A stretch of DNA of 64,000 bases, taken from an uncultured Pseudomonadota bacterium (GTDB lineage Bacteria > UBA10199 > JADFYH01). The notes beneath the pieces were generated by a model. The model saw nothing but the letters and a program-made list of their open reading frames with translations. It was not told where the DNA came from and did not search any database. Within the stretch, counting starts at the first letter, position 1; each line of letters opens with the position of its first letter. The translations under genes were made by a program, and so were the position numbers. The DNA lies in NCBI GenBank assembly GCA_964384365.1, contig CAYLKF010000001.1:212079-276078 (forward strand), read 5' to 3'. Below are positions 8,054-61,522 of the stretch, in pieces.

Positions 8054-8054
8054 G

Positions 8055-8702: not shown

Positions 8703-9928
8703 TAGAGTGCTTCCTCTTCATACTTCACCCTCACCTCACCACTCATCAGTTTAGGTAAAAGAGTGTCGCGAAGTTTTTCTAAATTTCTTATTTGTTGGTG
8801 ATTCGAATCAATTTTTTCCCAGGCATTTTCGGTAAAATTACAAAAAGTATGTAGGATCTCTTTTGAAGGTAATTGAAACTCAACAGTTTCAATGTCAGAT
8901 GGTTTTAGAGATGGATAAGTAGAAGTTGAAGCTTCAGCAATTGTGCTTAGATATTCCGTCATTTCATTCTGAGTAAGGAGATAATAAATAAAATGCGGAT
9001 TAATAGCACTGCAAGTGAGTACGCAAAAACCAGTTGAAACAACTAAGTTATTAGGCGGATTTTTAATAAATCCATAATGTTTATGATTAGGCCTGACTGT
9101 TGAAACGATAATATCATTATGTTGAACTAACCTTTTGGCCCGACTAGGAGAATCTTTTAGGGAATAAATTTCAAATTTTTCAATTTTCCCTTCTGTAATA
9201 GAACCAGTATCCAAATATTTAATAATTTCGTAAGGATGATCCGTCCTGAGTGTAGAAATATTAGTTTTTGCAATGTCACCTATAGTAATATTTGGCCAAC
9301 TTGGATTAGCCTCCTCCACAAACCACTGCCGAAAAAGTGTTTCAGCAATAGCTTCTAGGGTTTTGTTTTGGCGGTGGAGGAGGTCAATTTTGTCATCCAG
9401 GCTGGAGAGAATTTCGGCGATGGCTTTTTGTTCGGGGAGAGGTGGTAAAAAAAATGCATAATTTTTTATTGCCGTTGGAGAAGTATGTTTTATTGATGTT
9501 CCAGATGATGCGCTGACAATATATTGTTGATACTCTCTAGTTCGCATTAACCAATAAATAAATTCTCTATCCGTATTATTATTATTATTATTATTTTTAA
9601 ATTTAACTAAACCAACTCGTTGATTATGGAGAAAAATGACACCTTCCATATAAGGTATCTTTGCTGTATACCCTAAAGTATCACCGTCTTTACTTAAATC
9701 GGTCATAGTAACAATAATGTCGTCTGGTGTAAGAATATATTCTTTTGGAAAATCAGAGGATGAAAAATACTTAAACTTATCCTGCTTAAACCCACCCCCA
9801 ATATGAAAGTTTCCAGGGGTAACTAGAATTTTATCTGTTTTTTCTTGAGTTATATATTTTCCCTTAAAAGCATAACCATGCTTTATATCTATGACTTCAC
9901 CTAATGTTGTTTCTTCCCACTCACCCAT
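8702..9928 (-). CDS. hsdS: Type I restriction-modification specificity subunit (HsdS), two target-recognition domains
   Basis: Conserved central region LPPLPEQKAIAEIL...LLHRQN and C-terminal repeat LPSKEIL...LEKLRDTLLPKLMSGEV. Start overlaps the hsdM stop by 8 nt. Confidence 0.9.
   Translation of the reverse strand: MGEWEETTLGEVIDIKHGYAFKGKYITQEKTDKILVTPGNFHIGGGFKQDKFKYFSSSDFPKEYILTPDDIIVTMTDLSKDGDTLGYTAKIPYMEGVIFLHNQRVGLVKFKNNNNNNNTDREFIYWLMRTREYQQYIVSASSGTSIKHTSPTAIKNYAFFLPPLPEQKAIAEILSSLDDKIDLLHRQNKTLEAIAETLFRQWFVEEANPSWPNITIGDIAKTNISTLRTDHPYEIIKYLDTGSITEGKIEKFEIYSLKDSPSRAKRLVQHNDIIVSTVRPNHKHYGFIKNPPNNLVVSTGFCVLTCSAINPHFIYYLLTQNEMTEYLSTIAEASTSTYPSLKPSDIETVEFQLPSKEILHTFCNFTENAWEKIDSNHQQIRNLEKLRDTLLPKLMSGEVRVKYEEEAL
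9577..9597 (-). repeat. (AAT)7 trinucleotide repeat inside hsdS encoding a poly-Asn run
   Basis: Plus strand reads (ATT)x7; minus-strand translation ...KFKNNNNNNNTDREF in the first target-recognition domain. Confidence 0.85.
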
Positions 9929-11438
9929 TCAAAACCACCTTCGCTAAATTCTCTAAAATACGTTCATTGAGCTTAACTTCTTCTTTCATCTGAGCTTCCA
10001 ACTCCGCTTTGAGAACGGTAAAGCGTTCTGCAAAATTGAAATCATCTTCAATATCTTCCAAGCCCACATAGCGGCCTGGGGTCAGCACATAATCCAACTC
10101 CTGCACACGCTGGATGCTAGCTGAATTGCAGAATCCTTTTATGTCTTGATATCCATCGTCTTCCGATCGCCAGTTATGATAAGTTTGAGCAATTTTTTGG
10201 ATGTCTTCGTGAGAAAATTCTTTTGTGCGTCGATTGATGAGATGGCCGAGGTTACGGGCATCGATAAATAGAATTTCTTCCCGGCGATAGGTTTTGCCAC
10301 GTCGCAAAAACCATAAAGAAGCGGGGATTTGCGTATTCAGAAACAATTTGGCGGGCAAGTTAACGATGCAATCCACTAAGCGAGCTTCGATCAGTGCTTT
10401 GCGGATTTCGCCTTCGCCGGAGGATTTAGAAGTAAGCGCCCCTTTCGCCATGACAAAACCGGCATGGCCACTCGGAGATAAATGATAGAGGAAATGTTGA
10501 ATCCAGGCATAGTTGGCATTGCCACTGGGAGGAACGCCATATTTCCAGCGACCATCATTGCGGAGCAAATCACCGCTCCAGTCGCTATCATTAAAGGGAG
10601 GATTCGCGATGATGAAATCAGCTTTTAGATCTTTATGCGTATCGTTAAGAAAAGAACCTTCGTTGTTCCATTTCACTTGTGAGCTATCAATACCACGGAT
10701 GGCAAGATTCATTTTCGCCAAGCGCCAAGTGGTTTGATTGCTTTCTTGACCATAAATGGAAATATCGTTGATGCGGCCTTGTCGAGCTTCCACAAATTTT
10801 TCGGATTGAACAAACATTCCCCCTGAACCGCAGCAGGGGTCAAAGACTCGGCCTTTATAGGGCTCCAACATTTCTACCAGTAATTGCACAATAGAGCGAG
10901 GCGTATAGAACTGTCCCCCTTGTTTACCTTCTGCTAATGCGAATTCACCCAGAAAATATTCAAACACATGCCCCAGTATATCGGCACTGCGGGCTTTACT
11001 TTGTTCAATATCGATATTGCTAAATTCATCGATGAGTTTGCCTAAGTTGGCAGAATCTAAATTTCCTCGGGCAAAAACTTTTGGGAGGACTCCTTTGAGG
11101 GAAGGATTATCGCGCTCGATAGCATCCATTGCAGCATCGATGTCTTTTCCTATCTCTGGCAGCTTGGCCCGTGACTGCAAGTAGTTCCAACGCGCGGAAG
11201 GAGGCACAAAAAAAACATTCTTGGCTTTGTATTCGTCACGATCTTCCGGGTCGGCTCCCGCGAACTCTCCTTCGCCTTTTTTGAGTTGTTCATAAATTTC
11301 TTCAAAGGAACTTGAAATATATTTTAGAAAAACCAACCCCAAGACGACATGCTTGTATTCTGCCGCATCAATGTTTTTGCGAAGTTTATCCGCCGCTTCC
11401 CAAAGTTTTTTTTCTAATGATTCAATTTTTGAAGTCAT
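9921..11438 (-). CDS. hsdM: Type I restriction-modification N6-adenine DNA methyltransferase (HsdM)
   Basis: Motif I DPCCGSGGMF and motif IV FIIANPPFN. ATG at 11438..11436 with AGAGGGAG just upstream. Confidence 0.92.
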   Translation of the reverse strand: MTSKIESLEKKLWEAADKLRKNIDAAEYKHVVLGLVFLKYISSSFEEIYEQLKKGEGEFAGADPEDRDEYKAKNVFFVPPSARWNYLQSRAKLPEIGKDIDAAMDAIERDNPSLKGVLPKVFARGNLDSANLGKLIDEFSNIDIEQSKARSADILGHVFEYFLGEFALAEGKQGGQFYTPRSIVQLLVEMLEPYKGRVFDPCCGSGGMFVQSEKFVEARQGRINDISIYGQESNQTTWRLAKMNLAIRGIDSSQVKWNNEGSFLNDTHKDLKADFIIANPPFNDSDWSGDLLRNDGRWKYGVPPSGNANYAWIQHFLYHLSPSGHAGFVMAKGALTSKSSGEGEIRKALIEARLVDCIVNLPAKLFLNTQIPASLWFLRRGKTYRREEILFIDARNLGHLINRRTKEFSHEDIQKIAQTYHNWRSEDDGYQDIKGFCNSASIQRVQELDYVLTPGRYVGLEDIEDDFNFAERFTVLKAELEAQMKEEVKLNERILENLAKVVLNG

Positions 11439-11884: not shown

Positions 11885-11970
11885 TGCCCGAGGCCGGAAT
11901 CGAACCGGCACGACCGTTTCCAGTCACAGGATTTTAAGTCCTGTGTGTCTACCAATTCCACCACTCGGGC
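11885..11970 (-). tRNA. tRNA-Leu (anticodon UAA), long variable arm
   Basis: Cloverleaf folded by hand: acceptor GCCCGAG/CTCGGGC, anticodon stem CAGGA/TCCTG with loop CTTAAAA, T-stem GCCGG/CCGGC with loop TTCGATT, discriminator A. Confidence 0.85.
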
Positions 11971-12471: not shown

Positions 12472-12543
<72 letters not shown>

Positions 12544-17845: not shown

Positions 17846-19885
17846 TTATTCCATTTTGAAAACCGGCGTGCGAATCGGCGCAATCGTAAATCCAAAAGTG
17901 AAACTTTGACCCGGTGCCAGATTTTTCTGCCAACTGGGCAACTGCATCGTGGTTTGGTTTGCCGTTTTCGAAATCAAATCGACACTCCACGGCGAAAAAC
18001 CATTTCCTACATTCGCTGAAAATCGCAATCCGCTGAAGGTTGTAGATTTTGTCGTATTCTTGAGCACTGCCTTCATGTTGGCGCCACTCCAAGCTTCTCC
18101 CCTGCCCCACTCAGAATCGATTGAGAGCGTCAAGGTTAAGCCCGACGCAAGATTCTGCACCATTGATCCTTCTGTAGGATTCTGAGGGGGAGAAGGATCC
18201 GGTGCGGGGCTCGGAGCAGGGCTAGGTGGAGCAAGCTCTGTGGCGTTTTGCAAACTGAACGACGGCGTACTCAAAGGAGTCACTGTAAAACCAAAGGTAT
18301 AAGTTTCTCCAGGATCTAACGTGTTGTTGTAAGAGGGTAAACCTACCACGGTTTCAGAAGCGGTTTTCTGAACAGGATCCATACTCCAAATATTAATTCC
18401 ATTTCCTTGATTCGCTTTAATTTGAATTTGATTAAAAGTTTTGGAACTACTCATATTTTTAAGGGTGGCTTTATAAGTCGCTCCACTCCAGGGCTCCCCT
18501 TGGCCCCAAGAATTATCGACAACAAGTTGTAATTGAAAATCGGGCGAGATTGTTTGTGTTAAAGATCCGGGTGTTGGTGCAGGAGCAGGAGCTGGGCTGG
18601 GTGTTGGTGTTGGAGTTGGTGTTGGAGTCGGCGTTGGTGTAGGAGCGGGAGTAGGTGTTGGCGTAGGGCTTGGTGTGGGTGTAGGAGTGGGTGTAGGAGC
18701 AGGTGGAGGATTCCCATACAAAGTTTGAGAAACCAAAGAAGTTAAAGCATATTGATCATCGAGATCAATCGCCCAAATCATGGCTCCGCCCAGTTGTTTA
18801 TTCGTTAAATAATTCAATTTGCGGGTAATCGATTCCGAATCGTCGTAACTAATCCAATTTCCCCTTCCATCGTAGGCATAAGGCGTATCGGTATTTGAGT
18901 CCCACATACGCTGATATTGGCCACTATTCACGAGCTGCTCAATTTCATAATAAGCCATGAAACCGGCTTCTTGAGTGCAAGTGCCTCGCGGCGGATTCGG
19001 ACTCCACGGATTGGTGATCGTACTATTAGGCAGATTGGCCGAAGCGCTGCCAAAGCTTCTTCCATAAAACGGAATTCCTAAAATCAATTTCGACGAAGGC
19101 ACTCCCGCGTTGAGATAAAGATTCACAGTATAATCGATGTAAAAATGCCCATTGGGCACGGAGTCGTGCATCAAGGGCGAGTTGACTCCCGTTTTTGAAT
19201 CCCAACTTCCATGAAAATCGTAAGTCATGAGATTGATAAAATCGAGATAAGGATGAATCAAAGAAAGCTCGTAATTGGCAATGTGCGCTTCGCCCGCAGG
19301 AGCTGCGATTGTAAGCAAAAGCTTTTCTTTTCCGGCAGGAACCCGCTCGGCATCAATGGCTTGCCGAAATTCTTTGAGCAAGGCCGTAAAATTTTTCTTA
19401 TCTTGAGAAGTTCCAGAATGCTCTGCGAATCCGGGGTATTCCCAATCGAGATCAATTCCATCAAATCCGTAAGTTCGGGCATAAGTCATGGCTGAATTAA
19501 TAAAAGTTGCCCGCCGAGCAGAGCTTGAAGCCATCGCAGGAAAGGCATCACTTAAAGTCCAGCCCCCAATTGAAATCAAAGTTTTTAAATGGGGATACTG
19601 TTGTTTGAGGCTATTCAACTGCTCATACAAACCCGGAGAACCGCTGCTGATGTCATTCCACTCAACGGGTTGCACTTGATCACCCGCTCCAATTTTTGCA
19701 AAGGCATAATTGATATGCGTAAAATATTCGGGCCGGACATTGGCAGGAGTGAACTTGCATTGACCCGGCCGGTATTGAGCCCAATTGGTGAAATAGCCAA
19801 CAACTCGTGGAGTGGTATCGGCTCGCACTTCCAGAGAGAAGGCTAAAAGGAGAAATCCCAAAATCAACCGACTCAAGGCTTTCAT
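17846..19885 (-). CDS. Secreted GH18 chitinase with Pro/Thr linkers and two C-terminal CBM2-like modules
   Basis: Signal peptide, catalytic motif [11 protein letters not shown], long PT-repeat linker, two about 100-aa Trp-containing modules ([11 protein letters not shown]... and [11 protein letters not shown]...). Confidence 0.88.
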
Positions 19886-29368: not shown

Positions 29369-32300
29369 ATGAAACTGAACTTTAATCAAATTCAGGCCTC
29401 TGAAAGCATCGATCAGCATGTCTGTATCTTGGCGAGCGCAGGCTGTGGGAAAACCACGGTTTTGGTCGCGCATTATCTAGAACTTCTCCGAAAGAAAAAT
29501 TTGCGGCCCTCGCAAATTGTCGTTACCACTTTTTCTGAAAAATCGGCGGCAGATATCAAACAAAAAATCCTCCATCTCTTTCGAGAATCCGAAGATTTAG
29601 CACATTTACTTCCTGAATTTCTTCAAGCGCCCATTTCAACCCTCCATGGTTTGGCGGGCCGAATTTTAAGAGATTCTTCATTCTTGCTGGGGCTCGATCC
29701 GCATTTTCGGGTTTTAGATGAAAATCAAGCCGCAAGCCTTCAAAATGAGGCCTTAAAAGAGGTTCTTCAAGAACAACTCCATCAATCCTCCCCTTTTCTT
29801 AGCCTACTCATCCAGACTTATCCTTGGAGAGGTTTAGAAAGGGAGTTTTACGATTTGCTTCAAGCCTGGCCCGAGTGGAAGGAGCGTTTTTCTCAGGATT
29901 TTGAAAAAGGCTCCGATGAGACCGAAACAAAATTAAAAGAGGCTTTTGCCCAAGTTTTTCTTAAAATATTAGAAAAATATGAAGCGAAGAAAAAAGAAAA
30001 AGAACTGCTTGATTTTAATGATTTAGAAGAAAAAGCCATTGAACTGCTTCAAAAAAATATCTGGGTGGCCAAACACTATCAAAAACAATGGAAAGCCTAC
30101 CTGATTGATGAATTTCAAGATACGAGCCACCGCCAAGATCTTCTTCTCTCTCTTTTGCTGCCCCAAAATTCCGAAGGAAAACTCTCTCTCCAAACCCATT
30201 TGGCGATTGTGGGAGACCCCAAACAATCGATTTATGGCTTTAGGGGAGCAAAAGCCCACATTTTTGAGAAGTATCAAGCCCTCATCGAAAATTCGGGAGG
30301 CATGACTGTTGAGCTCAATGAAAACTATCGAAGCCCCAGCACTCTTCTCGATTTCATCAATGCCCTTTTTACCCCTATTTTTTCGAATTACTCTTCTTTG
30401 ATCGGCAACCGAGAATTACCCCAATCTTTAGAAATTTTAAAAAGTAATGAAATCATCGAAGAAATGAAGAGCGATGAGAGAAGAAAACAAGAAGCACAAT
30501 CTTTAAGCCTTCATCTTCAACAGATTTTAAAAGAAGGAGTAAAAAGCAAAGAGATTTTCGTTTTGGTTCGTTCTTCGAGATCAATGGCTCCCTATCTGAA
30601 AGCCTTTCGAAACGCAGGGCTCCCTGTTTTTGTGAAGTCAGGAGAAAGCTTGCTCACCCGGCAAGAAATTCAAGATTTACTTCACGCCTTAAGAGTTTTT
30701 CTCTACCCCAACCAAGCCCTTTCTTGGATCGGTCTACTCCGTTCTCCCGCCTTTCATTTAAGCGATGAACAACTACTGGAATACTCGCTCGATCATGGGC
30801 TGAAGCCCGACTGGACCCAAATTCACCCTCTTGCTCAAAAGCTCCTTCAACAAGATAAAAACCAATCACCGAGCCAATTTATCGAATGGTGGCTCAACGA
30901 AACCGCACTCATTTCATTATACAGTGCAGAGCCTTCTCTTCAGCCCCAGGCACAAAACCTGCTTCAATTTTATAATTTTTGTTTTGAATGGGAACAAACC
31001 CACCCCGCAAAACTTGAAGAGTTTTTAAAAGAAATGGAGGTCTTGATTGAAGAAAATATCCCTTTCAATAGTTTGAGCGATCAGCTGGGAGGCAATCAGG
31101 CCATTACTTTCATGACCATCCATCAATCAAAAGGCCTCGATCTCCCCGTGGTGGTTTTGCCCGATCTTAAAGTCAACTCTTCTCAAGCCGAAACCCGCTC
31201 TTTAATTTGTGCCTGGGAAAAAAAATGGGGATTAAAAGTTCCCGATTCAAAACCGGGGCTCAAAAAAAATCTGAAAAGCTCAAATGCCTTTCAAGAAAAT
31301 CTCAAAAACCTTCAAGCAGCGCAGGCCGAAGAAGAAAACAGAATTTTTTATGTTGCAACAACCCGCTCTACCCAAAAACTCATCTTAGGTTTTCTACCTT
31401 CTGAAAATCAAAAACTCGGGGGCAAGCCCCCGAGTTTGATCCTGAGCGACCCTTCGACTCGCTCCGCTCGCTCAGGGTCATCCTTCTCTATATTGTCTCG
31501 GCCCCAAGGAACCGAATTTCAGGAGTCGAAGGATGAAAAAAAAGAGAGCAAACAGGCCCGCGATTTCTTACAAACCGTCGGAAAAAACTTCTCTGCTGTT
31601 CGCTGGATCTCTCCTCTTCAAGAAATTTCAGAGCCCAACGAAAATAAAATTTTAAATAAAATACAAACGCTCTCTGCTTTTAAGCACAAACAAATTCTCC
31701 ATTTTGGAGTAAGTGCTCTAGAAACTTTTCAAAGATCCCCTCAAGAATATCGAGAGCGCTATATTGATCAAATTCCTGCGGAAAGTCTCTCAGGAGCTAA
31801 CCGTTTTCGTCCGAGCTCTTCACTCAGTGGCTTGAAAAAGGGGCAAATTCTTCACGAAGCTTTGTATCTTTATTTCAAAGAAAAAACTTCTAGCCCGGCT
31901 GAAATCTTAACCAGTTGCCTGGCCAAGCATGCAATCGATTCTCAAAACCTGCCAGAACTGCTAGAAATCTTCTCGCGCACTCTGAAGCATTCAAACTTTT
32001 CTCCGATCTTAAACGCCCAAGAAGCCTATTTTGAAATCGATTTCAGGCTCCTTTTAGATTTTTACGAGATTCAAGGGGCTATCGATTGTCTTTATTTGCA
32101 TGAAAAAACCTGGAAGGTTTTAGATTATAAAACCCATGCCTTAGAAGAAAATCGAAGCAAGAAAGAGCTGCCCGCAAAACCCTTTGAGTTTCAGCTCAAA
32201 ACCTATTGTCTTGCCGCCAGCAAAATGTTGGGTCAAACTACAGAGAGAGCTGAGGTTTATTTTATTATACCCAATAAAACTTTCTCTTTTAACTTTAAAG

Positions 32301-32380
32301 AGGAAGAGCTTAAGAAACATGAGCTTTATTTAAAAAACTTAATGAATGAAATTAATCAATTCACTCTGACTTCCTCATGA
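29369..32380 (+). CDS. AddA/RecB-like UvrD-family helicase with C-terminal nuclease domain
   Basis: Walker A SAGCGKTTV, motif II IDEFQDTS, FYVATTRS, C-terminal IDCLYLHEKTWKVLDYKTH. Confidence 0.8.
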   Translation: MKLNFNQIQASESIDQHVCILASAGCGKTTVLVAHYLELLRKKNLRPSQIVVTTFSEKSAADIKQKILHLFRESEDLAHLLPEFLQAPISTLHGLAGRILRDSSFLLGLDPHFRVLDENQAASLQNEALKEVLQEQLHQSSPFLSLLIQTYPWRGLEREFYDLLQAWPEWKERFSQDFEKGSDETETKLKEAFAQVFLKILEKYEAKKKEKELLDFNDLEEKAIELLQKNIWVAKHYQKQWKAYLIDEFQDTSHRQDLLLSLLLPQNSEGKLSLQTHLAIVGDPKQSIYGFRGAKAHIFEKYQALIENSGGMTVELNENYRSPSTLLDFINALFTPIFSNYSSLIGNRELPQSLEILKSNEIIEEMKSDERRKQEAQSLSLHLQQILKEGVKSKEIFVLVRSSRSMAPYLKAFRNAGLPVFVKSGESLLTRQEIQDLLHALRVFLYPNQALSWIGLLRSPAFHLSDEQLLEYSLDHGLKPDWTQIHPLAQKLLQQDKNQSPSQFIEWWLNETALISLYSAEPSLQPQAQNLLQFYNFCFEWEQTHPAKLEEFLKEMEVLIEENIPFNSLSDQLGGNQAITFMTIHQSKGLDLPVVVLPDLKVNSSQAETRSLICAWEKKWGLKVPDSKPGLKKNLKSSNAFQENLKNLQAAQAEEENRIFYVATTRSTQKLILGFLPSENQKLGGKPPSLILSDPSTRSARSGSSFSILSRPQGTEFQESKDEKKESKQARDFLQTVGKNFSAVRWISPLQEISEPNENKILNKIQTLSAFKHKQILHFGVSALETFQRSPQEYRERYIDQIPAESLSGANRFRPSSSLSGLKKGQILHEALYLYFKEKTSSPAEILTSCLAKHAIDSQNLPELLEIFSRTLKHSNFSPILNAQEAYFEIDFRLLLDFYEIQGAIDCLYLHEKTWKVLDYKTHALEENRSKKELPAKPFEFQLKTYCLAASKMLGQTTERAEVYFIIPNKTFSFNFKEEELKKHELYLKNLMNEINQFTLTSS

Positions 32381-33795
32381 CTACAGGGGCACGGGGGATG
32401 AGGTTCGCTGCATCCCCCGATACTATGGACGCACAAACACGGCAAATTTTGGAATGGTCTGGAGAACCCGAAAAAGCCTTTTTCGATTTCCAAATCTTTT
32501 GTCAAAGGTACCAAGAAAAAACCGGCCAAGAATTTGATTTAGAACCCGTCAATGCCAAACGTCTGCTTTCAATCTTCGGAAATTCCTTTTTCTTAACCCG
32601 TTTTCTCTTAAAACACCCCGAAGAAGCCGATGGAGTTGTGAGCTCTCCCTGCTTTGAAACCGATAAATCGATTCAAGAATTCACTGAAGAACTCAATCTC
32701 TTCATTCCAAACATTTTCGAACTTCCACTCTCAGAGTTCGGTAAAAAACTTCGCTTCTACAAATATCGCGAATATTTACGCTTAACAGCTAAAGATCTTT
32801 CACAGGTTGCAGGGCTCTCTACCGTTTTAAATGAGCTCTCTTACCTGGCCACCGCCCTCATCCAAAAAACCTATGAATATTTTTATGCCCGTTTAAGCCA
32901 GGAATTAGGAGAACCCGAAACCAATAGTTTTGGCATTATTGCTCAAGGAAAACTAGGGGGCATGGAACTCAATTACTCCTCGGATGTTGATCTTCAATAT
33001 GTTTACCAAAGCGACCATGGCATTTTAAAAAAGTCTTCGCTCTCTCCTCACGAGTTTTTTGTGAAACTGGCTGAAAAAATTTCTCATTTTTTAAGCGAGA
33101 AAACCCCCGAAGGCTTTCTCTACCGCGTCGATTTAAATTTAAGACCCGAAGGCAAAAGTGGAACTCTCGCCAACTCATTATCTGCAATTGAATTGTATTA
33201 CGAAAGCTTTGGGGCTGAGTGGGAAAGACAAGCCCTAATTCGCGTTTTGCCGGTGGGTGGAAATCCTGAACTAGGAAAAACTTTTTTGAAGGTTATAGAA
33301 CCCTTTGTGTGGCGAAAAAGCATGGATCTGGGTGTGATTGAGAAAATGAAAGAGATGAAACAAAAAATTCGCCACTCGATTGCCGATTCCTTGACCAAGG
33401 GCTTTCATGTAAAACTGGGCGAAGGGGGAATTCGCGAAATTGAATTTTTTGTGCAAACCCTACAACTCTTATATGGCGGACGACATCCTGAGCTCAGAGA
33501 ACCTTCTACCCTGCCTGCCATTCAAGCTTTAAACAAATTTCAATTTATTCCGTCGCTTCAGGCCTCTCAACTCAAAGAGGCTTATCTTTTTTTACGTTCC
33601 TTGGAGCATCGTTTACAAATGGTTGAAGAAGCTCAAACCCATCGTATTCCCGAAGATTCAAAATCCCAACAAGCTTTGGCCAGGCGTATGGGATATTTCG
33701 AAGAAGATCCTGAAAAAGCCCGCGAGCATTTGCAAGATGATCTCACTCATTACACCGCTTTTGTAAAAGCAACTTTTCAGGATTTATTCCGATAA
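32377..33795 (+). CDS. glnE: Glutamine synthetase adenylyltransferase GlnE, N-terminal half as a separate ORF
   Basis: Nucleotidyltransferase motif GKLGGMELNYSSDVDLQYVY; start overlaps the addA-like stop (ATGA). Confidence 0.75.
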   Translation: MTTGARGMRFAASPDTMDAQTRQILEWSGEPEKAFFDFQIFCQRYQEKTGQEFDLEPVNAKRLLSIFGNSFFLTRFLLKHPEEADGVVSSPCFETDKSIQEFTEELNLFIPNIFELPLSEFGKKLRFYKYREYLRLTAKDLSQVAGLSTVLNELSYLATALIQKTYEYFYARLSQELGEPETNSFGIIAQGKLGGMELNYSSDVDLQYVYQSDHGILKKSSLSPHEFFVKLAEKISHFLSEKTPEGFLYRVDLNLRPEGKSGTLANSLSAIELYYESFGAEWERQALIRVLPVGGNPELGKTFLKVIEPFVWRKSMDLGVIEKMKEMKQKIRHSIADSLTKGFHVKLGEGGIREIEFFVQTLQLLYGGRHPELREPSTLPAIQALNKFQFIPSLQASQLKEAYLFLRSLEHRLQMVEEAQTHRIPEDSKSQQALARRMGYFEEDPEKAREHLQDDLTHYTAFVKATFQDLFR

Positions 33796-33846
33796 AGACC
33801 TCCTCCTCTTAAGATTAAGAGGGGGTATTAATGGATGTATTAAAAC

Positions 33847-34989
33847 ATGCTCAACAAACAAAACCTTGAAAAAGAAATTACCGAAGAAATTGAATCGTTG
33901 CCCGATCTCGAGGCCAAACTTGATATTATTCGCGTCTTTAAAAACAACCACCTCAAGGCACTTCAACAAACTGATCATAATGATTTAAACCAGCTTCCCG
34001 AAATTTTTAAAGACTTAAGCCTCATCGCCGATACCTTGGTGGAAGCCACTTTAAAACTTGCTGAAAAAGAGATTCAGAAAAACTATGGGATTCCTTCTTA
34101 TACCGATAATCTTGGAAACATCAGCGAATCCGAATTTGCGATTGTCGCTCTAGGTAAATGGGGTGGCAAAGAAATTCATTACGGCTCTGATCTTGATTTA
34201 ATCTTTCTCTATACTCGCGATGGCGAGACTCGTGGACGCAAGAAAATCACCAATAAAGAATATTACATTCTACTTGCCCAAAAACTGATCTCTTTTTTAA
34301 CGGCCTACACCTTTCACGGCTATGCCTATAAAATTGATACCCAACTTCGCCCTTCGGGCAATCAAGGCGCCTTGGTTTCTTCGCTCAATGCTTATTTCGA
34401 TTATCAACGGAACAAGGCCCAATTTTGGGAAAAACAGGCCCTACTCAAAGCCCGCTTTGTGGCCGGTTCTCCAAGTTTCGGCTCTTCTTTAAAAGGCCTT
34501 TTCCAACAACTCATTTTCTCAAAAGATTTTCCGCCCGATTTAAATACGAAAATTCACCACATGCGCATGCGTATGGAAAAAGAGAATGGCCGTGAAACGG
34601 CGAGGCGCCTTCATTATAAATTGGGATTTGGGGGTTTAACCGACATTGAATTTCTCACCCAATATCTTCAACTCAAAACCGGAAAAGTCTTTGAAAATTT
34701 TTTAACCGGGAACACGCTCGAGGCACTTCAAAAAATGGGTGAAAAGGGTCTTCTCAAAAAGACCGATTACACGCTTTTACGCGAGGCTTATCTTTTTTAC
34801 CGACTTCTAGAAACGCGAATGGAAGTCAACTTCGATCTTCGTGAGGGCTATATTGATCCAGAAAGTCATTTATTAGAAAATTTAGCCGAACTTATGGGGG
34901 AGACTTCCCAGGCATCTTTGCTTGAACATTTTCAAAAAACCCGAGATGATGTGCGTAGAATTTATTTAGAAATCTTAAAACTCGAATAA
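33847..34989 (+). CDS. glnE: Glutamine synthetase adenylyltransferase GlnE, C-terminal half as a separate ORF
   Basis: Second nucleotidyltransferase motif GKWGGKEIHYGSDLDLIFLY; separated from the first half by 51 nt containing a stop. Confidence 0.75.
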   Translation: MLNKQNLEKEITEEIESLPDLEAKLDIIRVFKNNHLKALQQTDHNDLNQLPEIFKDLSLIADTLVEATLKLAEKEIQKNYGIPSYTDNLGNISESEFAIVALGKWGGKEIHYGSDLDLIFLYTRDGETRGRKKITNKEYYILLAQKLISFLTAYTFHGYAYKIDTQLRPSGNQGALVSSLNAYFDYQRNKAQFWEKQALLKARFVAGSPSFGSSLKGLFQQLIFSKDFPPDLNTKIHHMRMRMEKENGRETARRLHYKLGFGGLTDIEFLTQYLQLKTGKVFENFLTGNTLEALQKMGEKGLLKKTDYTLLREAYLFYRLLETRMEVNFDLREGYIDPESHLLENLAELMGETSQASLLEHFQKTRDDVRRIYLEILKLE

Positions 34990-34992
34990 TTT

Positions 34993-36225
34993 ATGTCTCT
35001 TCACCTGATTTCTCAAAAATTAAATACCTCCCAAGAAGCGCTAGAAACTTATTTCCAAGCTGAATTTGAAAAAACGCCACCGCTGCTCTATCTCTCTTGC
35101 GACATTCGCAATTCTGGGCAGAAAATATCGGTGGTCGATACCAATCTTTACCCGGCGGGTTTCAATAATCTCTGCAAAGCTTATACGGCCCAAGCGGTGC
35201 ATCAATTTAAGCAATATCTTCAAAGGTTTTTTCCAACGGCCCAAAAAATATTGCTCTTCACCGAGGCACACACGCGAAACAAGTTTTATTTCGAAAATAT
35301 TTCTCGCCTCGCCGAAATGTTAAAATCCGCTGGGAAAGAGGTCGAAATCGGACATCCCCAAATCGAAAACTCAGGGCCTTTAAGCTTGCCGAACATCACG
35401 TTGAATTTGCACGCCCTACAAAAACAAAACGATCAGCTTTCGACAAAAGAAGGATGGTTTCCTGATTTAATTATTTCGAACAACGATTTTTCTTCGGGCC
35501 CCCACCCCTTGCTTGAAAATATTCAACAGACCGTGATTCCTCCCATGGCCTTAGGCTGGCACTCGCGCCAAAAGAGCGTGCACTTTCAACTGTATGAAAA
35601 AGTCTGCCAAGAAGTAGGTAAAATTTCAGGGCTTGACCCGTGGCTACTCTCCTGTGAGCAAGAACTCATGCGCAATATTCAACTCACTGAAGCAGAAGGC
35701 TTGAAAAACATGGCACAAAAGGTAGATGAAGTTTTGGCCCGCATTCAAAAAAAATATGCCGAATACAAAATCGATTCTTCACCCTACGTGTTTATTAAAA
35801 ATAACTCGGGCACTTATGGAATGGGAATTGCCTATGTAAGTAGTGCCGACGAGATTTTGAACATGAATCGCCGTTTGCGCAACAAGCTCCTCTCTTCGAA
35901 GGGCGGCGGAAGCCCGAGCGAGTTTTTGATTCAAGAAGGAATTCCTACGATTGATTCGTATAGTAGCTATCCCATGGAACCCGTAATTTACATGGTGGGT
36001 GACCAAAGCATTGGGGGATTTTTTAGACTCAATGAAGAAAAAGATGAATGGAGCTCACTCAATACCCAAGGCATGGCCTTTTCTTGCCTTTGCCTTCATA
36101 AGCTCGACGAGCCCCATGAAGAACCTTTTTTGAATTGTGCGGAAAAAGCAAATTTGCTGAAAGTATCTTTCCTGCTCGCGAAAATGGCAGCCTTAGCTGC
36201 AGCTAGGGAGAATAAAACTCTCTAA
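34993..36225 (+). CDS. Putative ATP-dependent carboxylate-amine ligase-like protein, uncertain
   Basis: 410 aa; segment YVFIKNNSGTYGMGIAYVSSADEI resembles an ATP-grasp nucleotide-binding strand; no confident family call. Confidence 0.4.
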   Translation: MSLHLISQKLNTSQEALETYFQAEFEKTPPLLYLSCDIRNSGQKISVVDTNLYPAGFNNLCKAYTAQAVHQFKQYLQRFFPTAQKILLFTEAHTRNKFYFENISRLAEMLKSAGKEVEIGHPQIENSGPLSLPNITLNLHALQKQNDQLSTKEGWFPDLIISNNDFSSGPHPLLENIQQTVIPPMALGWHSRQKSVHFQLYEKVCQEVGKISGLDPWLLSCEQELMRNIQLTEAEGLKNMAQKVDEVLARIQKKYAEYKIDSSPYVFIKNNSGTYGMGIAYVSSADEILNMNRRLRNKLLSSKGGGSPSEFLIQEGIPTIDSYSSYPMEPVIYMVGDQSIGGFFRLNEEKDEWSSLNTQGMAFSCLCLHKLDEPHEEPFLNCAEKANLLKVSFLLAKMAALAAARENKTL

Positions 36226-44366: not shown

Positions 44367-44567
44367 ATGGAAATTCTTCTGAACGGTGAACCTTTTCAAC
44401 TCAGCTCACCCGAAACCTTAAGCGAGCTTTTAAACAAGCACTCGATTAACCTTTCGTTTTGTGCAGTCGCTGTGAACCGAAAAGTTGTTCCCCGCTCCGA
44501 ACTTGCTAAAACTCAAGTGCAAGAAGGCGATCAAATCGAGATCGTTCAAGCCGTGGGGGGGGGATGA
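44367..44567 (+). CDS. thiS: Thiamine biosynthesis sulfur-carrier protein ThiS
   Basis: 66 aa ending in GG. Confidence 0.85.
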
Positions 44568-44632
44568 AGTTTGACAACTCTCGCATTCCACTCGGAGCCA
44601 AAGGAAATGTAGGTTTTTTAGAAAGGAAGCTC

Positions 44633-47075
<2,443 letters not shown>

Positions 47076-47076
<1 letters not shown>

Positions 47077-52660: not shown

Positions 52661-54247
52661 TTAACTGGCTGCACCAATATCAAAAGAGAGCGAAAATTTA
52701 ATTTCATCTTGCACTCCCTTTCTTACATTTCCTGTTTGCACATTCTTAAACTGGGGAATTTTCTCTAGCGAATTTTTAACCTTATCAACCGCCTCGTAAG
52801 AAGTAGTTCTTCCTTCAAAACGCACATGATCACTGGCTACATTCAAATCATCTACTTCAAGTTTTAGATCTTGCTTCGGCGGCAAGGCACCCGAGAGCAA
52901 GCGTAAAATTTCTAGGGCCGAGAGTTCATTACCCCCTTCTAATTTTTGCAGACGATCTTTGGTTTCACTAATACGAGAATTCACCAACGAAAGAGCCTCT
53001 TGAGCCCCTTTCGGAGGTTTTTTCAAGCCCTGCAAGCCTTGGCTCACCAAATCGGAAACACTGCGATTCATGCTTTTTTCATGGCTACCCAACAAATAAA
53101 GACTCATTCCGAAATACAAAATTCCCATGAAAACAACCAAAACAGCCATCACGGCGACCTGACGCGACCAACCTGAGATCATTTGAAGATCTCTCTTATA
53201 GGCAAATTCGCCGCTTCGAAAATTAAGGGCATTTACTTTTGAAGGATACAGCGCCCGGAAAAGCAGCGCTAAAGAGGGCGCCACGACAGTTCGGGCGGCT
53301 TCAGGATCACTCAAACGCGTATAACTGTAATCTAAGACATCGAGGGGCGAAACGTTTAATCGTAAATTCGTTGAGAGATATTGATCAAGTCCCGCCAATT
53401 TCGACGTCCCTCCGGTAAGATAGACGGCTTCTATCTTTTTTCCACCGCCTTCGTAATAAGCAAAAAGAGTTTGGCGAATATGAATGAGCAATTCATCAAC
53501 GACTTCTTGAATCACTGCTGCAAGCTTATCGCCCGTTTCAAAAGGAGAAACCTGCCCCTGCTTCACTTTCATCCCTTCGGCAGTTTCGAGATCAATTTCC
53601 AACTTACGAGCGATTTCATGCGTAATATTTTTTCCGCCGATTGCTAAAGTACGAGCAAAGCGAAGCTCAGAGCCTTCCATCACACAGAGGTTAGTTTTGG
53701 AGTGCCCGATATCTAAAAGAATATAATAGCCTTCGGGGGGCAACATACCCGAAAGATGCAAGCCTGCTAAGTCGACACATTCTACACCTACATAGCGGGG
53801 CTCCGCGGCAGCTTGGGTCAAGATATTCAAAAATTTTACCAATTCTGCCTTGGGAGTATAAAACGATAATACTTTCGAATGATTGGGAGTCTTCTCGAGA
53901 ATGATGTAATCAATCGCCAAATCTTCAATCGAAAATGGCACATGCGTTTCTAATTCAAACTCTAGTGCCGAATCGATTTTTTTGGGCTGATTGAAAGGAA
54001 ATTCCAAAACACGAGAAGAACATTGATAACCTGAGAGCGAAGAAACTACCGTATCGTATTGCCATTTTTTTTCTTCAAAAAATTTAGTGAGTAAAGCCGT
54101 TGTCGCTTGCTCAGGCGTGAGCACATCGTGGGTAACGAGTGGAAGCTCATAGAAATCCGTCACGTAAAACTCCCCCAACGATCGCTCGGCACGCGCAACC
54201 TTGATGGAGTAAGATCCAACATCGATTCCCAAAATAACCTGAGGCAC
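52661..54247 (-). CDS. gspL: Type II secretion system protein L (actin-like ATPase fold N-domain)
   Basis: N-terminus ILGIDVGSYSIKVA (PilM/GspL-like), central TM. Confidence 0.7.
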   Translation of the reverse strand: MPQVILGIDVGSYSIKVARAERSLGEFYVTDFYELPLVTHDVLTPEQATTALLTKFFEEKKWQYDTVVSSLSGYQCSSRVLEFPFNQPKKIDSALEFELETHVPFSIEDLAIDYIILEKTPNHSKVLSFYTPKAELVKFLNILTQAAAEPRYVGVECVDLAGLHLSGMLPPEGYYILLDIGHSKTNLCVMEGSELRFARTLAIGGKNITHEIARKLEIDLETAEGMKVKQGQVSPFETGDKLAAVIQEVVDELLIHIRQTLFAYYEGGGKKIEAVYLTGGTSKLAGLDQYLSTNLRLNVSPLDVLDYSYTRLSDPEAARTVVAPSLALLFRALYPSKVNALNFRSGEFAYKRDLQMISGWSRQVAVMAVLVVFMGILYFGMSLYLLGSHEKSMNRSVSDLVSQGLQGLKKPPKGAQEALSLVNSRISETKDRLQKLEGGNELSALEILRLLSGALPPKQDLKLEVDDLNVASDHVRFEGRTTSYEAVDKVKNSLEKIPQFKNVQTGNVRKGVQDEIKFSLSFDIGAAS

Positions 54248-55545
54248 TATTCAACCCTCCAAAATAATTCTTTCCATTGGGCAGGATTATTGCCACTCGC
54301 GTTGAGAACTTCAACAATTTTTACACGGGCATTTCCCAACTCGCCCTTTGCGTGAATCGTAAAGATTACTTCTTGATCGGTTAACATCGAACTAAAGCCA
54401 GAAGTAGTGCCAGCAGCCGACGGCTGACTTTGAGGTGCTCCGGCAGAAGGCACCGAGGGGCTATTATTTTGAGCATTCGGAGCTGTCGCACCCAATGCTT
54501 CATTCAATGCTTGCCCCATTGCCGCCGTATCAGGACATTTACCTTGCACAGCCGACATCGCATTTTTAAGGCGTTCTGCATTGTCCATGCGTAAAGGCTC
54601 CATGTCGTCTCGCTTTTGAGTATAAGCCACGATCATCGCCTGCAATAATTCATCGGAGGCAACACACGCATTTATCTTATCGGCATCTCGATACACAGTC
54701 ACATTTTTTTTGAGCTCTTGCAATAAATCTTCTTTCATTCCCGGTACAAAAATCAGTTCTTCGACATCTAAAAGTTTCCCATTTTTAGGACGCGCTGTAG
54801 TTCCTGCATAACTCGAACTTTCACTCCCTCGTTCTCCACCCCCAAAATCATTCACCGCATCATTCTTATCGATAAAATCTGCAATTTTAGCCGCCAAATC
54901 GGTAGATTCTCGGGTTTTATCTTTGAAAAAACGCTCGAAAGGTTTTTGCTGAAGCAAAAACATAAGCACATACTTCAACCGATCGTATTCGGGTTGAGTG
55001 GCAGTAAGAGCAAAAAAAGCGTTGAGCGGTAATTTACCTTCTTCAGCATCGATATCCGATGAAAAATTTCCATCAAAATCTAAAAATTCTTTGGCAACTT
55101 TATCATTAAAACTATTCGATTTTTGTTTTACGGCTTCCAACGTTTTGGCATCTACCCCACTCTCTTCGGGTGCATTTTCTTCTACCCCTTCTCCAATGCC
55201 AGGAGTTTTCGCTAAGCCACGAAGAAGTTCAGAATTAATAGGAAGCATTTTATAAAGAGGCTTTACCTGCACATTACGGTTTAGCTTCTTGGCTGCCTCG
55301 GCAATCATTTTTTTTGCTTCTTTATCGTACTGAATCATCAATTTCGAAAAATAGAGGGCCGACTGCGCCATATAATACGATTGGAGTCGATCGCGCTCAT
55401 TCATCGCGATATTAAAAGTCACATTCGAATGGGTTGCAAAATTGATTACCAGAGTGGAAATGATCATGAGCGACGACAAAACCAATAAGAGAGATATTCC
55501 GCGGGTGTTGCCATGAAATCGTCGATGTTTTTTAGAAAAGTTCAT
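54247..55545 (-). CDS. gspK: Type II secretion system minor pseudopilin K
   Basis: N-terminal hydrophobic helix ISLLLVLSSLMIIS; position after gspJ. Confidence 0.65.
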   Translation of the reverse strand: MNFSKKHRRFHGNTRGISLLLVLSSLMIISTLVINFATHSNVTFNIAMNERDRLQSYYMAQSALYFSKLMIQYDKEAKKMIAEAAKKLNRNVQVKPLYKMLPINSELLRGLAKTPGIGEGVEENAPEESGVDAKTLEAVKQKSNSFNDKVAKEFLDFDGNFSSDIDAEEGKLPLNAFFALTATQPEYDRLKYVLMFLLQQKPFERFFKDKTRESTDLAAKIADFIDKNDAVNDFGGGERGSESSSYAGTTARPKNGKLLDVEELIFVPGMKEDLLQELKKNVTVYRDADKINACVASDELLQAMIVAYTQKRDDMEPLRMDNAERLKNAMSAVQGKCPDTAAMGQALNEALGATAPNAQNNSPSVPSAGAPQSQPSAAGTTSGFSSMLTDQEVIFTIHAKGELGNARVKIVEVLNASGNNPAQWKELFWRVE

Positions 55546-55547
55546 TT

Positions 55548-56417
55548 TTAGTAAGCCAAGGGTGCTGCATAAAGTTTTACATTTGCATAAGTTGCCAATT
55601 CAATTTCTTCATCTGAATCAGGGTCTTTCAATTTTAAGGTAATCTTAACCATTCGCGGAAGATGATTGCTAAACTCGAGTTGGGAGGAATCCCAACTTTT
55701 CGACCAATCTTTTTTAGTCGCATCGTAATATTCAAAACGCAGATCGCTCACACTCCCCACCATCTCTTCGATTTTACCCCCTTCTTCGGGGCGATCATCT
55801 AACAGCCTCTGTTCACGACGCTTCAAAATATTGGTCTCACTCTTCTCAGGATCTTTTTCTAAAAAATATCCTATTTCCCCAAAATTGTTTTCTTGGGATT
55901 CAGCAAAATAGCGCTCAATAGAGAAACTGGCAAAGTTCACATGATCTTGTTCTCCTTTAAACACTGTTTTTTTACGGCCATCGTTCCCCAGAAAATCAGG
56001 GCTCACAATCAGAAAAGACATTTCTAAATCTCGCGCCATTCGCCCCAATGCAAGAGAGGCCTGATGCATCAGTTCATCTCGATCTTCGGTACTCTGATTG
56101 GTTTTAACCGTCTCGGTCATCGAAGCATAAAGCAAAACGGTCATGAGCGCCAAAATGCTGATCGCGATCATCACCTCAATCAGCGTGAAACCCTGAGAAA
56201 ATAAATTTTGACTTGAAGATAACGGATGCCTTCTTCTTGAAGTAAAGGAAAAACAAGCCGAAGCCTCTCTATTTTGACCCAAGCAAATCGAGGAATTCGT
56301 ATAAAAAAGAGGGTTCCTTGCGGCGGATTTTTTCCTGAACGGAAAGAAGGAGGCATCTGTAAAGTAGCCTCTACTTAAGATTAGCGATGTGCGTTGTAAC
56401 GACGACTTTCTCTTCAT
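55548..56417 (-). CDS. gspJ: Type II secretion system minor pseudopilin J
   Basis: Prepilin motif GFTLIEVMIAISILAL. The track start overlaps gspI; the true start is probably a non-ATG codon further downstream. Confidence 0.7.
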   Translation of the reverse strand: MKRKSSLQRTSLILSRGYFTDASFFPFRKKSAARNPLFYTNSSICLGQNREASACFSFTSRRRHPLSSSQNLFSQGFTLIEVMIAISILALMTVLLYASMTETVKTNQSTEDRDELMHQASLALGRMARDLEMSFLIVSPDFLGNDGRKKTVFKGEQDHVNFASFSIERYFAESQENNFGEIGYFLEKDPEKSETNILKRREQRLLDDRPEEGGKIEEMVGSVSDLRFEYYDATKKDWSKSWDSSQLEFSNHLPRMVKITLKLKDPDSDEEIELATYANVKLYAAPLAY

Positions 56418-56928
56418 CTCCCTCTTCCCCTCCTTCCCCCCATGAAATGGTCACCTGAACTTCACGAATAGCCTCGGAGATTTTTTTGGTCACCACTTGA
56501 GCCATATTATTGGCAGCCATTTCAACCGCCCCATTAGCACCGCTTCCTCCGGTTGCCGCCGATAGAGTTTCTGGGCTGGGAGCTCCAGTTCCCTCCATCA
56601 TTTCGGCAGGAAGTTGTAAAACAGGAAGCTGTACTTTTTTAACGGTATAAGCCCATCTATAATCTTCGAAGGGTTTTTCAAAAGTTCCGTTTTCTTCTTT
56701 TTCATCAGGAAAAGCACCTCGCGCAATATCTTGCTCAATATTCAAAAGAATCTCCGACATTTTTTGGCGCGCTAGAAAATTTGATTTTTCGGTGCTCTCT
56801 GCCATTCCAGAAGCCTTCAAACTATTTCCAACAGAGCTATAGAGGGTAATCAACGAAATCGAAAGGATGGCCAAGGCAATCATCACTTCTAAAAGAGTAA
56901 AGGCCGAAGATGTTTTACTTTGGACCAT
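56371..56928 (-). CDS. gspI: Type II secretion system minor pseudopilin I
   Basis: Prepilin motif AFTLLEVMIALAIL. Confidence 0.75.
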   Translation of the reverse strand: MVQSKTSSAFTLLEVMIALAILSISLITLYSSVGNSLKASGMAESTEKSNFLARQKMSEILLNIEQDIARGAFPDEKEENGTFEKPFEDYRWAYTVKKVQLPVLQLPAEMMEGTGAPSPETLSAATGGSGANGAVEMAANNMAQVVTKKISEAIREVQVTISWGEGGEEGDEEKVVVTTHIANLK

Positions 56929-57021
56929 TCTTAAAATTCTCCTAGAAACCTCTGAAAACTAGCCAGACGTCAGGCATCTGCAAACGAGCAACAATGCAGA
57001 TGGGTAATTTTAGAGATTCCC

Positions 57022-57675
57022 TCACTTCTTTTCGTCTTCAGGTTTATACTCGAAATATTCGCTGCGAATCTTGCTTCGGCCCGTTGCAGGAAAAACTTCA
57101 ATCGAATAAAAGCTCTCTTCTTTTTCATCGGTCAAATTGATCACGGCTTTTTCAACCCAACCATTCGGAAAAAAATAAATCGCCACCTTTCCCGATTCCA
57201 CTTTTTTTCCATAATGTTCCACATACACATCTTTAATTCGAACCCCACTCGGAATCTCGATAGGTTTTAATAAAAAATTCGTCTCTTGATTAAAACTTAC
57301 TTGGGCGGCCCCTTCGGGCTCGGGCTCTGGAGCATTTGCGTCTGTATTGGGAGCTGTGCTTGCCTTCGGTTCAGAACCCACCGAAGGATCATCGGGAGTT
57401 CCATCTGGCGTTGCAACAATTTTAAAAGGATCTTCCGCAGATTCTACAGAAAAAGTACGAGCACCAAAATCAATTAAGAGGCGATAGTATTGATTCTTCA
57501 CCGCCGCTTCATTGTAGACATATTTGATTGTACCGGAGAGTTGATCGGCCGTGGTTGAAATCTTTTCCCCAAACAAGTCCTGCAGAGTAAAGGCAGTAAG
57601 CCCCATAATGAGGGCAATCACCGCCACCGTGACCATGATTTCAATTAAAGTGAAGCCACGTCGGCTCTTAAACAT
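57022..57675 (-). CDS. gspH: Type II secretion system minor pseudopilin H
   Basis: Prepilin motif GFTLIEIMVTVAVI. Confidence 0.75.
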   Translation of the reverse strand: MFKSRRGFTLIEIMVTVAVIALIMGLTAFTLQDLFGEKISTTADQLSGTIKYVYNEAAVKNQYYRLLIDFGARTFSVESAEDPFKIVATPDGTPDDPSVGSEPKASTAPNTDANAPEPEPEGAAQVSFNQETNFLLKPIEIPSGVRIKDVYVEHYGKKVESGKVAIYFFPNGWVEKAVINLTDEKEESFYSIEVFPATGRSKIRSEYFEYKPEDEKK

Positions 57676-57767
57676 AAGGAATCAACAAAGAGAGGTTAGA
57701 AAAGAAAATCGCTTCGACACTCAAAAATGCCCACGATACAAGGCACTCGTGCATTTTTCAGCATCGA

Positions 57768-58244
57768 TTATTTAGTAATCTCAAAGTTCTTGATATCGGT
57801 ATCGTAATCTTCTCCGCCTTCTTGCCCATCTCTTCCTAAAGAGATAATTTCATAAGGGTGCCCAGCGTTTCCGGGGCTGGTGTAAATGAGATCATTTCCC
57901 CATGCGTCTTTGGGAAGTTTTTTCAAATAACCATCTTTGGGGTAATTATCAGGAATTTTTCCTACGGTGGGTTTTTCAACCAACGCTTGCAAACCTTGCT
58001 CTGAACTCGGGTAAGAGCCGTGTCGTCTTTTATACTGATCTAAGGCCGCTTCTACATTTTTGATTCCAATTTTCGTGGTTTCCACCTTCGATTCATCAAG
58101 ATAATCTAAAACGTTGACGGTTACCAAGGCTGCGATCGAGCCGATAATAGCAACCACCACCATGATTTCGATTAGGGTCATTCCTTTTTGAGAGGTTTTA
58201 GAAGAAACTCTAGTTCTGAATTTCTGAAGCACATTCTTAAACAT
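57768..58244 (-). CDS. gspG: Type II secretion system major pseudopilin G
   Basis: KG|MTLIEIMVVVAIIG with Glu at +5. Confidence 0.85.
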   Translation of the reverse strand: MFKNVLQKFRTRVSSKTSQKGMTLIEIMVVVAIIGSIAALVTVNVLDYLDESKVETTKIGIKNVEAALDQYKRRHGSYPSSEQGLQALVEKPTVGKIPDNYPKDGYLKKLPKDAWGNDLIYTSPGNAGHPYEIISLGRDGQEGGEDYDTDIKNFEITK

Positions 58245-58300
58245 TTTTGATCTCCTTTAATTGAATAGATCTTAACGAGCCATCTTAAGACTCACAGAAT

Positions 58301-59530: not shown

Positions 59531-59701
59531 TCGAAATAATTGTCCTTAAATTTTCATTATTATAATTTCTTTTAGAACCGTTATGAGCGGGCTCAAGACA
59601 AGGCGGGCGAGGAGAAAAGCCGCAGCGTATATGAATATACGTGAGGATTTTTCGACGAACCCAACGCAGTCATTAGTCCGCGTAATAGGTTATAAAAGAA
59701 A

Positions 59702-61506: not shown

Positions 61507-61522
61507 GGACAGATCAAAAAAT

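Follow-up and report, generated by a model that had tools for sequence, protein, structure and literature searches.

Background

What is to be made of a glnE gene that comes in two pieces? The Escherichia coli GlnE protein (946 amino acids, aa; structures 1V4A and 3K7D) is the product of one gene and carries two paralogous PF03710 + PF08335 modules, together with an R domain and a covalent path for the PII signal. We have analysed a stretch of 64,000 nucleotides (nt), here called the window, from an uncultured Pseudomonadota bacterium (GTDB lineage Bacteria; UBA10199; JADFYH01; GenBank assembly GCA_964384365.1, contig CAYLKF010000001.1, positions 212,079 to 276,078). In it, two such modules lie in the same order and with the same catalytic motifs, but on two genes, and neither the R domain nor the covalent path is present. 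An earlier note on this DNA, made from its letters alone, had left two possibilities, a genuine two-subunit enzyme or a recent disruption.

Is the split real? Is it shared with relatives? And what has become of the regulation that E. coli builds into a single polypeptide? No description of a naturally split GlnE was found in full-text literature searches. Here we report that the split is real and that it very probably reflects an ancient, fixed fission of glnE that went together with the loss of the central R domain and has given two separate proteins in this lineage.

The glnE gene is divided between two open reading frames

The two open reading frames (ORFs) and the sequence between them are as follows.

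32377-33795, + strand: ORF1 (glnE-N), longest ORF, 472 aa; probable start at ATG 32425, giving 456 aa
33796-33846, + strand: intercistronic spacer, 51 nt, non-coding
33847-34989, + strand: ORF2 (glnE-C), 380 aa

In Pfam searches each ORF has one PF03710 (GlnE) and one PF08335 module; instead of two tandem PF03710 + PF08335 modules in one polypeptide, there is one pair on each of two ORFs. The earlier note's description of glnE as two separately initiated ORFs with one nucleotidyltransferase domain each agrees with these modules and with the coordinates. Its lengths of 472 and 380 aa are right for the longest ORFs, but the first protein is probably shorter. It set the two ORFs beside the domains of E. 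coli GlnE but overlooked the central R domain, some 146 residues, that is missing here, so that the locus is more than an E. coli-like protein cut into one domain per ORF.

ORF1 and ORF2 share one reading frame with 51 nt between them. The note had measured this gap correctly and placed a stop in it; there are in fact three in-frame TAA codons, at 33793, 33829 and 33841, and the junction reads LFR*RPPPLKIKRGY*WMY*N-MLNKQ. With three in-frame stops, no one-base error gives a single frame. Over 4,602 nt (31459-36060) the window shows no difference from a Logan assembly made independently from run SRR8893623. A sequencing error that hides a single frame, which the note had held open, is discarded on both counts. 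The split of glnE is real, and is neither a broken gene nor a sequencing error.

The split is conserved and both halves are under selection

A search with ORF2 found 43 cluster representatives (P0001-P0043) with 93 to 40% identity. These are stand-alone proteins of about 375-396 aa, except for three of 432-435 aa and two fragments of 290 and 316 aa, and many of them are encoded on contigs of 50-418 kb. The ORF1 homologs (P0121-P0148) are also stand-alone, with lengths of 439-483 aa, and one of them, P0121, matches at 100%. Where a source name is given, the homologs are called 'hypothetical protein' or carry a generic GlnE name.

The glnE gene is split in all 14 of the lineage loci that were read, and the form of the junction varies among them. 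A 4-nt ATGA overlap joins the halves in L002, L019, L082/83, L084 and L092, and a gap of 1-9 nt separates them in L087, L088, L089 and L091. The two closest relatives have spacers of 53 nt (L081, the 93% relative) and 55 nt (L085, the 85% relative). Two genomes have other genes between the halves. In L001 (3275-5737) this is the gene for an 820-aa protein with ASH/Cep192-type Ig domains, and in L086 (1287-4883) there are two opposite-strand ORFs without a Pfam match, which implies that the halves are transcribed separately there.

When the window is compared with L081/L085, the ratio of nonsynonymous to synonymous substitution (dN/dS) comes to 0.043/0.047 in the N half of glnE and 0.046/0.069 in the C half; gshA, the gene that follows, has a comparable value of 0.032. 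The motifs G-K-x-G-G-x-E...S-D-x-D-L, RPxG, WE[KR]QA and GGxxxIEF are invariant in both halves. As judged from these substitutions, both halves are under strong purifying selection. Of the two alternatives in the earlier note, the genuine two-protein enzyme is the one borne out, by a split found in every relative examined down to 40% identity, by the low dN/dS and by the halves being apart in two genomes. The comparison with related genomes that it had proposed as a check gave close relatives that are split, not fused.

Further split glnE loci lie outside the window clade. L064 (515-3116), from a Nitrospirales metagenome-assembled genome (MAG), encodes proteins of 447 and 422 aa with an 11-nt overlap, and L041 and L048 are also split; these three may be independent fissions. 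The splits in L022 and L031, where the break falls within the R region and the frames overlap, look like frameshift or assembly errors.

The N half is a predicted adenylyl-removing protein

ORF1 matches PF03710 at 2.7e-58 and PF08335 at 3.5e-32, and covers positions 12-437 of 946 in NCBIfam PRK11072, the model of E. coli-type GlnE. Its residues 59-441 align with residues 29-412 of 1V4A, the structure of E. coli AT-N, the adenylyl-removing (AR) N domain. The polymerase beta-type active site G-x-G-G-x-E...S-D-x-D is present as GKLGGMELNYSSDVDL and is invariant among clade members. An Asn equivalent to E. coli N169 has been described as class-specific to the AR domain, and a Gly, G697, to the adenylyltransferase (AT) domain (PMC4454073). 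The AR-specific Asn is found in ORF1, where GKLGGMELNYSSDVDL carries it within ELNYSSDVD, as it is in every N domain examined. These matches point to glnE-N as a stand-alone AR (deadenylylating) half, the counterpart of E. coli AT-N440.

The start of ORF1 is probably ATG 32425, giving 456 aa, because its relatives begin at a homologous MDAQTRQILEW that matches this codon and because the 48 nt ahead of it have a frame-breaking 1-nt indel in L081 and cannot be aligned in L085. The first 16 codons of the longest ORF1 (32377-32424, MTTGARGMRFAASPDT) are thus probably untranslated.

The C half is a predicted adenylyltransferase core

ORF2 matches PF03710 at 6.2e-55 (profile positions 41-248), followed by PF08335, and covers positions 591-867 of PRK11072. 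Its residues 20-316 align with positions 161-457 of the 3K7D chain. This corresponds to about E. coli 609-905 if the chain starts at residue 449, as reportedly in Xu et al. 2010. The polymerase beta-type active site is GKWGGKEIHYGSDLDL; like the other motifs, it is invariant in the 42 homologs.

We modelled ORF2 with AlphaFold2 from an alignment of 42 homologs; the model has a predicted local distance difference test score (pLDDT) of 93.6 and a predicted template modelling score (pTM) of 0.91. In Foldseek it matches 1V4A with a template modelling (TM) score of 0.87 (E 4.6e-22), and 3K7D with a query-normalised TM score of 0.83 and a target-normalised one of 0.64. The lower value is expected, since the R region is missing from ORF2 and only part of the longer chain can be covered. 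ORF2 is confidently predicted to fold as a compact stand-alone unit with the GlnE-domain fold.

Codons 2-3 of ORF2 show synonymous changes among relatives, which supports ATG 33847 as its start, and the position of the start is the same as for all family members. Taken together, these comparisons suggest that glnE-C is a stand-alone AT catalytic core, the counterpart of E. coli ~590-946 without the central R domain.

The R domain is missing and was probably lost before the fission

Residues ~444-589 of E. coli GlnE, ~146 in all, have no counterpart in ORF1 and ORF2 together. Positions ~438-590 of PRK11072 are likewise unmatched, and ORF2 begins near E. coli 590. We take the missing stretch to be the Q1 linker and the R domain, with boundaries as reportedly given by Clancy et al. 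2007. In canonical fused relatives, profile matches put the end of the N module ~153-158 residues ahead of the region homologous to ORF2.

Where, then, does the split form come from? In the more distant relatives, which belong to Binatia, Desulfuromonadales, Nitrospinota, Planctomycetota and other groups and have 31-38% identity, GlnE is fused and keeps the R region. A further set of fused GlnE homologs, uncharacterised proteins of ~780-866 aa, lacks it, and in these the distance from the N to the C module is 5-48 residues. Examples are P0149-P0154, P0162, P0166, P0171, P0187 and P0250-P0336. They have the same N and C modules as the split clade, but on a single polypeptide. In a representative-library search they made up at least 25 of the top 150 clusters at 50% identity; this search ranks two-domain proteins above split ones and so gives a poor count of the split clade itself.

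When the C domains were placed in a neighbour-joining tree, with the N domains as its root, the window clade was monophyletic in 97/100 bootstraps, with its core at 100/100, and lay among the R-less forms. Fused R-less proteins are its nearest relatives in this tree. Both halves, ORF2 with the C domains among them, cluster with the matching domains of bona fide fused GlnE. The likeliest order of events is that the R domain was lost first and the gene divided second. We considered a single origin for the loss of the R domain and do not adopt it, since the R-less forms group together at 56/100 and only with the R-containing sequence L030 included.

The genes on either side of glnE bear on the age of the fission.

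29369-32380, + strand: addA-like helicase-nuclease gene, upstream; its stop overlaps ATG 32377; a conserved syntenic neighbour
34993-36225, + strand: gshA (glutamate-cysteine ligase, TIGR02049 type), beginning 3 nt past the ORF2 stop

In the window, addA-glnEN-glnEC-gshA is probably one co-transcribed unit. The locus L019, at 35% identity, encodes proteins of 450 and 362 aa joined by an ATGA overlap, in the gene order addA-glnEN-glnEC-gshA-dksA-dciA. As L019 shares this order, the fission may be older than the well-supported clade.

The junction contains a hairpin conserved in the two closest relatives

Five features lie within or across the junction.

33802-33812 / 33815-33825, + strand: inverted repeat CCTCCTCTTAA / TTAAGAGGGGG, 11 nt with one mismatch (a G-U pair in RNA)
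33802-33825, + strand: RNA hairpin; minimum free energy structure a 10-bp stem, 33802-33811 / 33816-33825, -14.6 kcal/mol
33819-33825, + strand: Shine-Dalgarno (SD)-like GAGGGGG, 5 nt before ATG 33831 and 9 nt before ATG 33835
33831-33869, + strand: upstream ORF (uORF) MDVLKHAQQTKP with its stop, 12 codons, out of frame, overlapping the ORF2 start
33835-33843, + strand: mini-ORF ATG-TAT-TAA, 2 codons, in frame

L081 and L085 have spacers that are homologous to that of the window but differ from it in length by 2 and 4 nt. These differences are not multiples of three, which shows the spacers to be non-coding. The inverted repeat that the earlier note reported is present. As RNA, its two arms form a hairpin in which a CCUCC-rich, anti-SD-like arm, 6 nt past the ORF1 stop, pairs with a purine-rich, SD-like arm. 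Taken alone the window hairpin is mildly unusual, as 4-8 of 200 shuffled sequences fold as well. The hairpin is retained in L081. The L085 spacer forms two nested hairpins on the same plan (-34.6 kcal/mol), and 0 of 200 shuffles fold as well. Their inner stem has compensatory changes relative to the window (UUAA/UUAA in the window, CCUU/AAGG in L085), and a second SD, which has the correct spacing to the start, is sequestered in the outer stem. From this pattern it is plausible, at modest confidence, that the hairpin is a translational-coupling or dosage element.

The GAGGGGG element and the 12-codon ORF that follows it at 5 nt are as the earlier note described them, but it made too much of them: the uORF is not conserved and the element is far from the ORF2 start. 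The uORF has 8 codons in L081 and is absent from L085, which rules it out as a conserved leader peptide; it is probably incidental, to judge from these alignments. The hairpin is not a dispersed repeat, its 24-mer being found once in the window. A scan of the window at Rfam gathering thresholds gave two tRNAs elsewhere and no family at the spacer. No promoter-like or terminator-like site was found at the junction on the + strand, where counts equal the shuffled expectation.

Alternative explanations

Might the locus be a once-fused glnE that was broken in this genome and is now decaying? The shared frame of the two ORFs, with only 51 nt and stops between them, would suit such an event, as would the fused state of the distant relatives. 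It is nevertheless scarcely credible, and the earlier note's second alternative falls with it. The split is common to relatives from 93% down to 40% identity (35% in L019) with differing junction types and frames, and this degree of divergence rules out that the relatives are contaminants of one population. Other genes stand between the halves in L001 and L086. Both halves have dN/dS of 0.04-0.07, as low as in neighbouring gshA, and their catalytic motifs are invariant. A false stop or frameshift within a fused gene is the least probable explanation of all. The sequence does derive from a MAG, and loci such as L022 and L031 resemble just such artefacts. However, three in-frame stops and a 51-nt non-coding spacer exceed any single error, the independent assembly is identical, homologous spacers are found in L081 and L085, which are from another sample, and ORF2 starts where all family members do. 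Programmed recoding, in which readthrough or frameshifting would yield one fused GlnE with the hairpin as stimulator, is extremely improbable. It would fit the frame that both ORFs share in the window and the stable hairpin that lies 6 nt past the ORF1 stop, but ribosomes would have to pass three successive TAA codons, the halves differ in relative frame among relatives (+2 in L081, +1 in L085, -1 in the overlaps elsewhere), the spacer lacks coding-type conservation, and the halves are not even adjacent in L001 and L086. Together, the conserved split, the variety of junctions, the selection and the motifs exclude recent disruption, assembly error and programmed recoding.

A change of function is a more serious rival, though an unlikely one. 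Here, once the gene had divided and the R domain was lost, AMPylation or de-AMPylation by one or both proteins would be directed at something other than glutamine synthetase (GS), with GshA, a carboxylate-amine ligase, as a candidate, or a single activity would still be in use. In its favour, gshA directly follows glnE-C in most clade members, a clade-specific His stands in ORF2 at the place of G697, the R region that responds to PII has been lost, and glnA, glnB and glnD are absent from the window. Yet the adjacency of gshA is limited to this lineage, where it moves with the unrelated syntenic genes addA, dksA and dciA; in L084 and L085 it is interrupted, and L089 does not have it. We therefore reject synteny as a sign of a functional link to gshA, as the genes are neighbours in this lineage only, where gene order is conserved. 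Both halves also cluster with their counterparts in bona fide fused GlnE, and many fused homologs likewise vary at the G697 position.

Several observations weigh against an ancient fission into two working GlnE halves with a coupling hairpin between them. PRK11072 scores ORF1 at 337.6 bits and ORF2 at 261.3 bits, both below its curated equivalog cut-off of 487 bits. Neither GS (glnA) nor PII (glnB/glnK) nor glnD is encoded in the 64-kb window. The 56/100 support for the R-less grouping, in a neighbour-joining tree with L030 included, is low. ORF2 has the clade-specific His where proteobacterial AT domains, E. coli GlnE among them, have the class-specific Gly697. This position is N/S/D/T/G/H among the C domains of the sampled fused relatives, so that the rule is not diagnostic outside the taxa it came from and, as a marker of AT identity, is uninformative for these taxa. 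As to the hairpin, its conservation is known from two other lineages only, and GAGGGGG sits 21 nt from the ORF2 start. In addition, 23 of the 43 window genes have no SD at proper spacing, ORF1 and gshA among them, and on that ground the case that ORF2 needs the SD-like element to be initiated is weak. With the element so far off and about half of the window genes without an SD, the coupling role of the hairpin is uncertain.

Comparison with known systems and a proposed working

In the work of Jaggi et al. 1997, isolated AT-N reportedly depends on PII-UMP, and isolated AT-C is reported to be PII-independent and activated by glutamine. The engineered truncations of GlnE (AT-N/AT-C, 'unidirectional adenylyltransferases' and deltaNT-GlnE) resemble the window locus in that the halves are expressed separately, and the natural break, with ORF1 ending at about E. 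coli 443, falls on the boundary chosen for AT-N440. In such truncations the C-terminal half by itself AMPylates GS both in vivo and in vitro, and it senses glutamine. The unidirectional adenylyltransferases (uATs), which consist of the C-terminal part only, are active in vivo and shut down GS (PMC9249168). The deltaNT-GlnE protein is active and glutamine-responsive but has lost inhibition by GlnB-UMP, a signal that needs the N domain (bioRxiv 10.64898/2026.09.02.748916). Unlike the split clade, these are laboratory constructs, most of which keep the central domain in the C fragment; the split clade is natural and R-less, and both of its halves have been kept by selection.

AMPylation and de-AMPylation are also on separate proteins in Legionella, which pairs the GlnE-like AMPylase DrrA/SidM with the de-AMPylase SidD. 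The adenylyltransferase domain of DrrA (6yx5_B, E 1.4e-06) is the next structural match of the ORF2 model after the GlnE structures. DrrA targets Rab1, and SidD is an unrelated protein phosphatase 2C (PP2C)-like hydrolase. In contrast to that pair, in which SidD is unrelated to DrrA, both proteins here are GlnE paralogs.

How might the ancient, R-less split enzyme work? By orthology, GlnE-C would AMPylate glutamine synthetase (GS-I) when nitrogen is plentiful, and GlnE-N would strip the AMP by phosphorolysis when nitrogen is scarce. That GS is the target, and how the two proteins are regulated, we infer from homology. Since the halves have neither a covalent link nor an R domain, each activity must be controlled alone or through a non-covalent complex, which would replace the intramolecular signalling of E. 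coli. Separate sensing of effectors could give reciprocal control without the R domain, if isolated halves behave as is said of them. The weakest part of this proposal is that the spacer hairpin would tie translation of ORF2 to ribosomes finishing ORF1, coupling by unwinding, and would so do the job of the ATGA overlaps in other clade members.

A bolder version would be a free-standing writer/eraser pair, freed from PII-driven intramolecular control and perhaps with another or an additional target, GshA being the obvious candidate. We regard this as quite improbable; if GshA were the target, AMPylation would be linked to glutathione synthesis.

Other features of the window

A type I restriction-modification operon occupies 3861-11438 on the - strand, with hsdM at 9921-11438, hsdS at 8702-9928 and hsdR at 3861-7028. 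Inserted between hsdS and hsdR are two additional genes, for a DUF4917/SIR2-like protein (7010-8053) and an Abi_C protein (8055-8702), and tRNAs at 11885-11970 and 12472-12543 adjoin the operon. The region looks like a composite defence island beside tRNA genes. A hybrid histidine kinase is encoded at 1456-3690 (+ strand); its N terminus matches the ethylene-receptor domain ETR1_N (1.3e-39), and the rest of the protein has PAS, HisKA, HATPase and receiver domains in turn. The - strand further encodes a GH18 chitinase with CBM49/CBM2 modules (17846-19885) and a complete type II secretion/type IV pilus-like cluster (52661-63928) with secretin, GspE, GspF, pseudopilins and a PilM-like protein. 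The thiG gene (44553-45406) has a run of nine G directly ahead of its start (gtggggggggg-ATG). The longest thiC ORF (45232-47076, from TTG 45232) overlaps thiG by 175 nt, and for that reason the real thiC start is probably later.

Conclusions

The split, R-less GlnE is a variant of a well-known enzyme and no new kind of system. Its halves are at present named 'hypothetical protein' or full 'bifunctional' GlnE, and each falls under the equivalog cut-off. As minimal natural AR and AT enzymes they would be useful for biochemistry and for the engineering of ammonia excretion, and the lineage has by nature what the AT-N/AT-C and 'unidirectional adenylyltransferase' constructs were engineered to provide, a counterpart to them outside the laboratory.

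GlnE is the textbook case of a single protein with two opposing activities, in which intramolecular signalling from PII is said to prevent futile cycling. The lineage described here makes a question about this arrangement testable. Does reciprocal control depend on a covalent link and on the R domain, or is separate sensing, for which glutamine on AT and PII-UMP with 2-oxoglutarate on AR are candidate effectors, or a non-covalent complex, enough?

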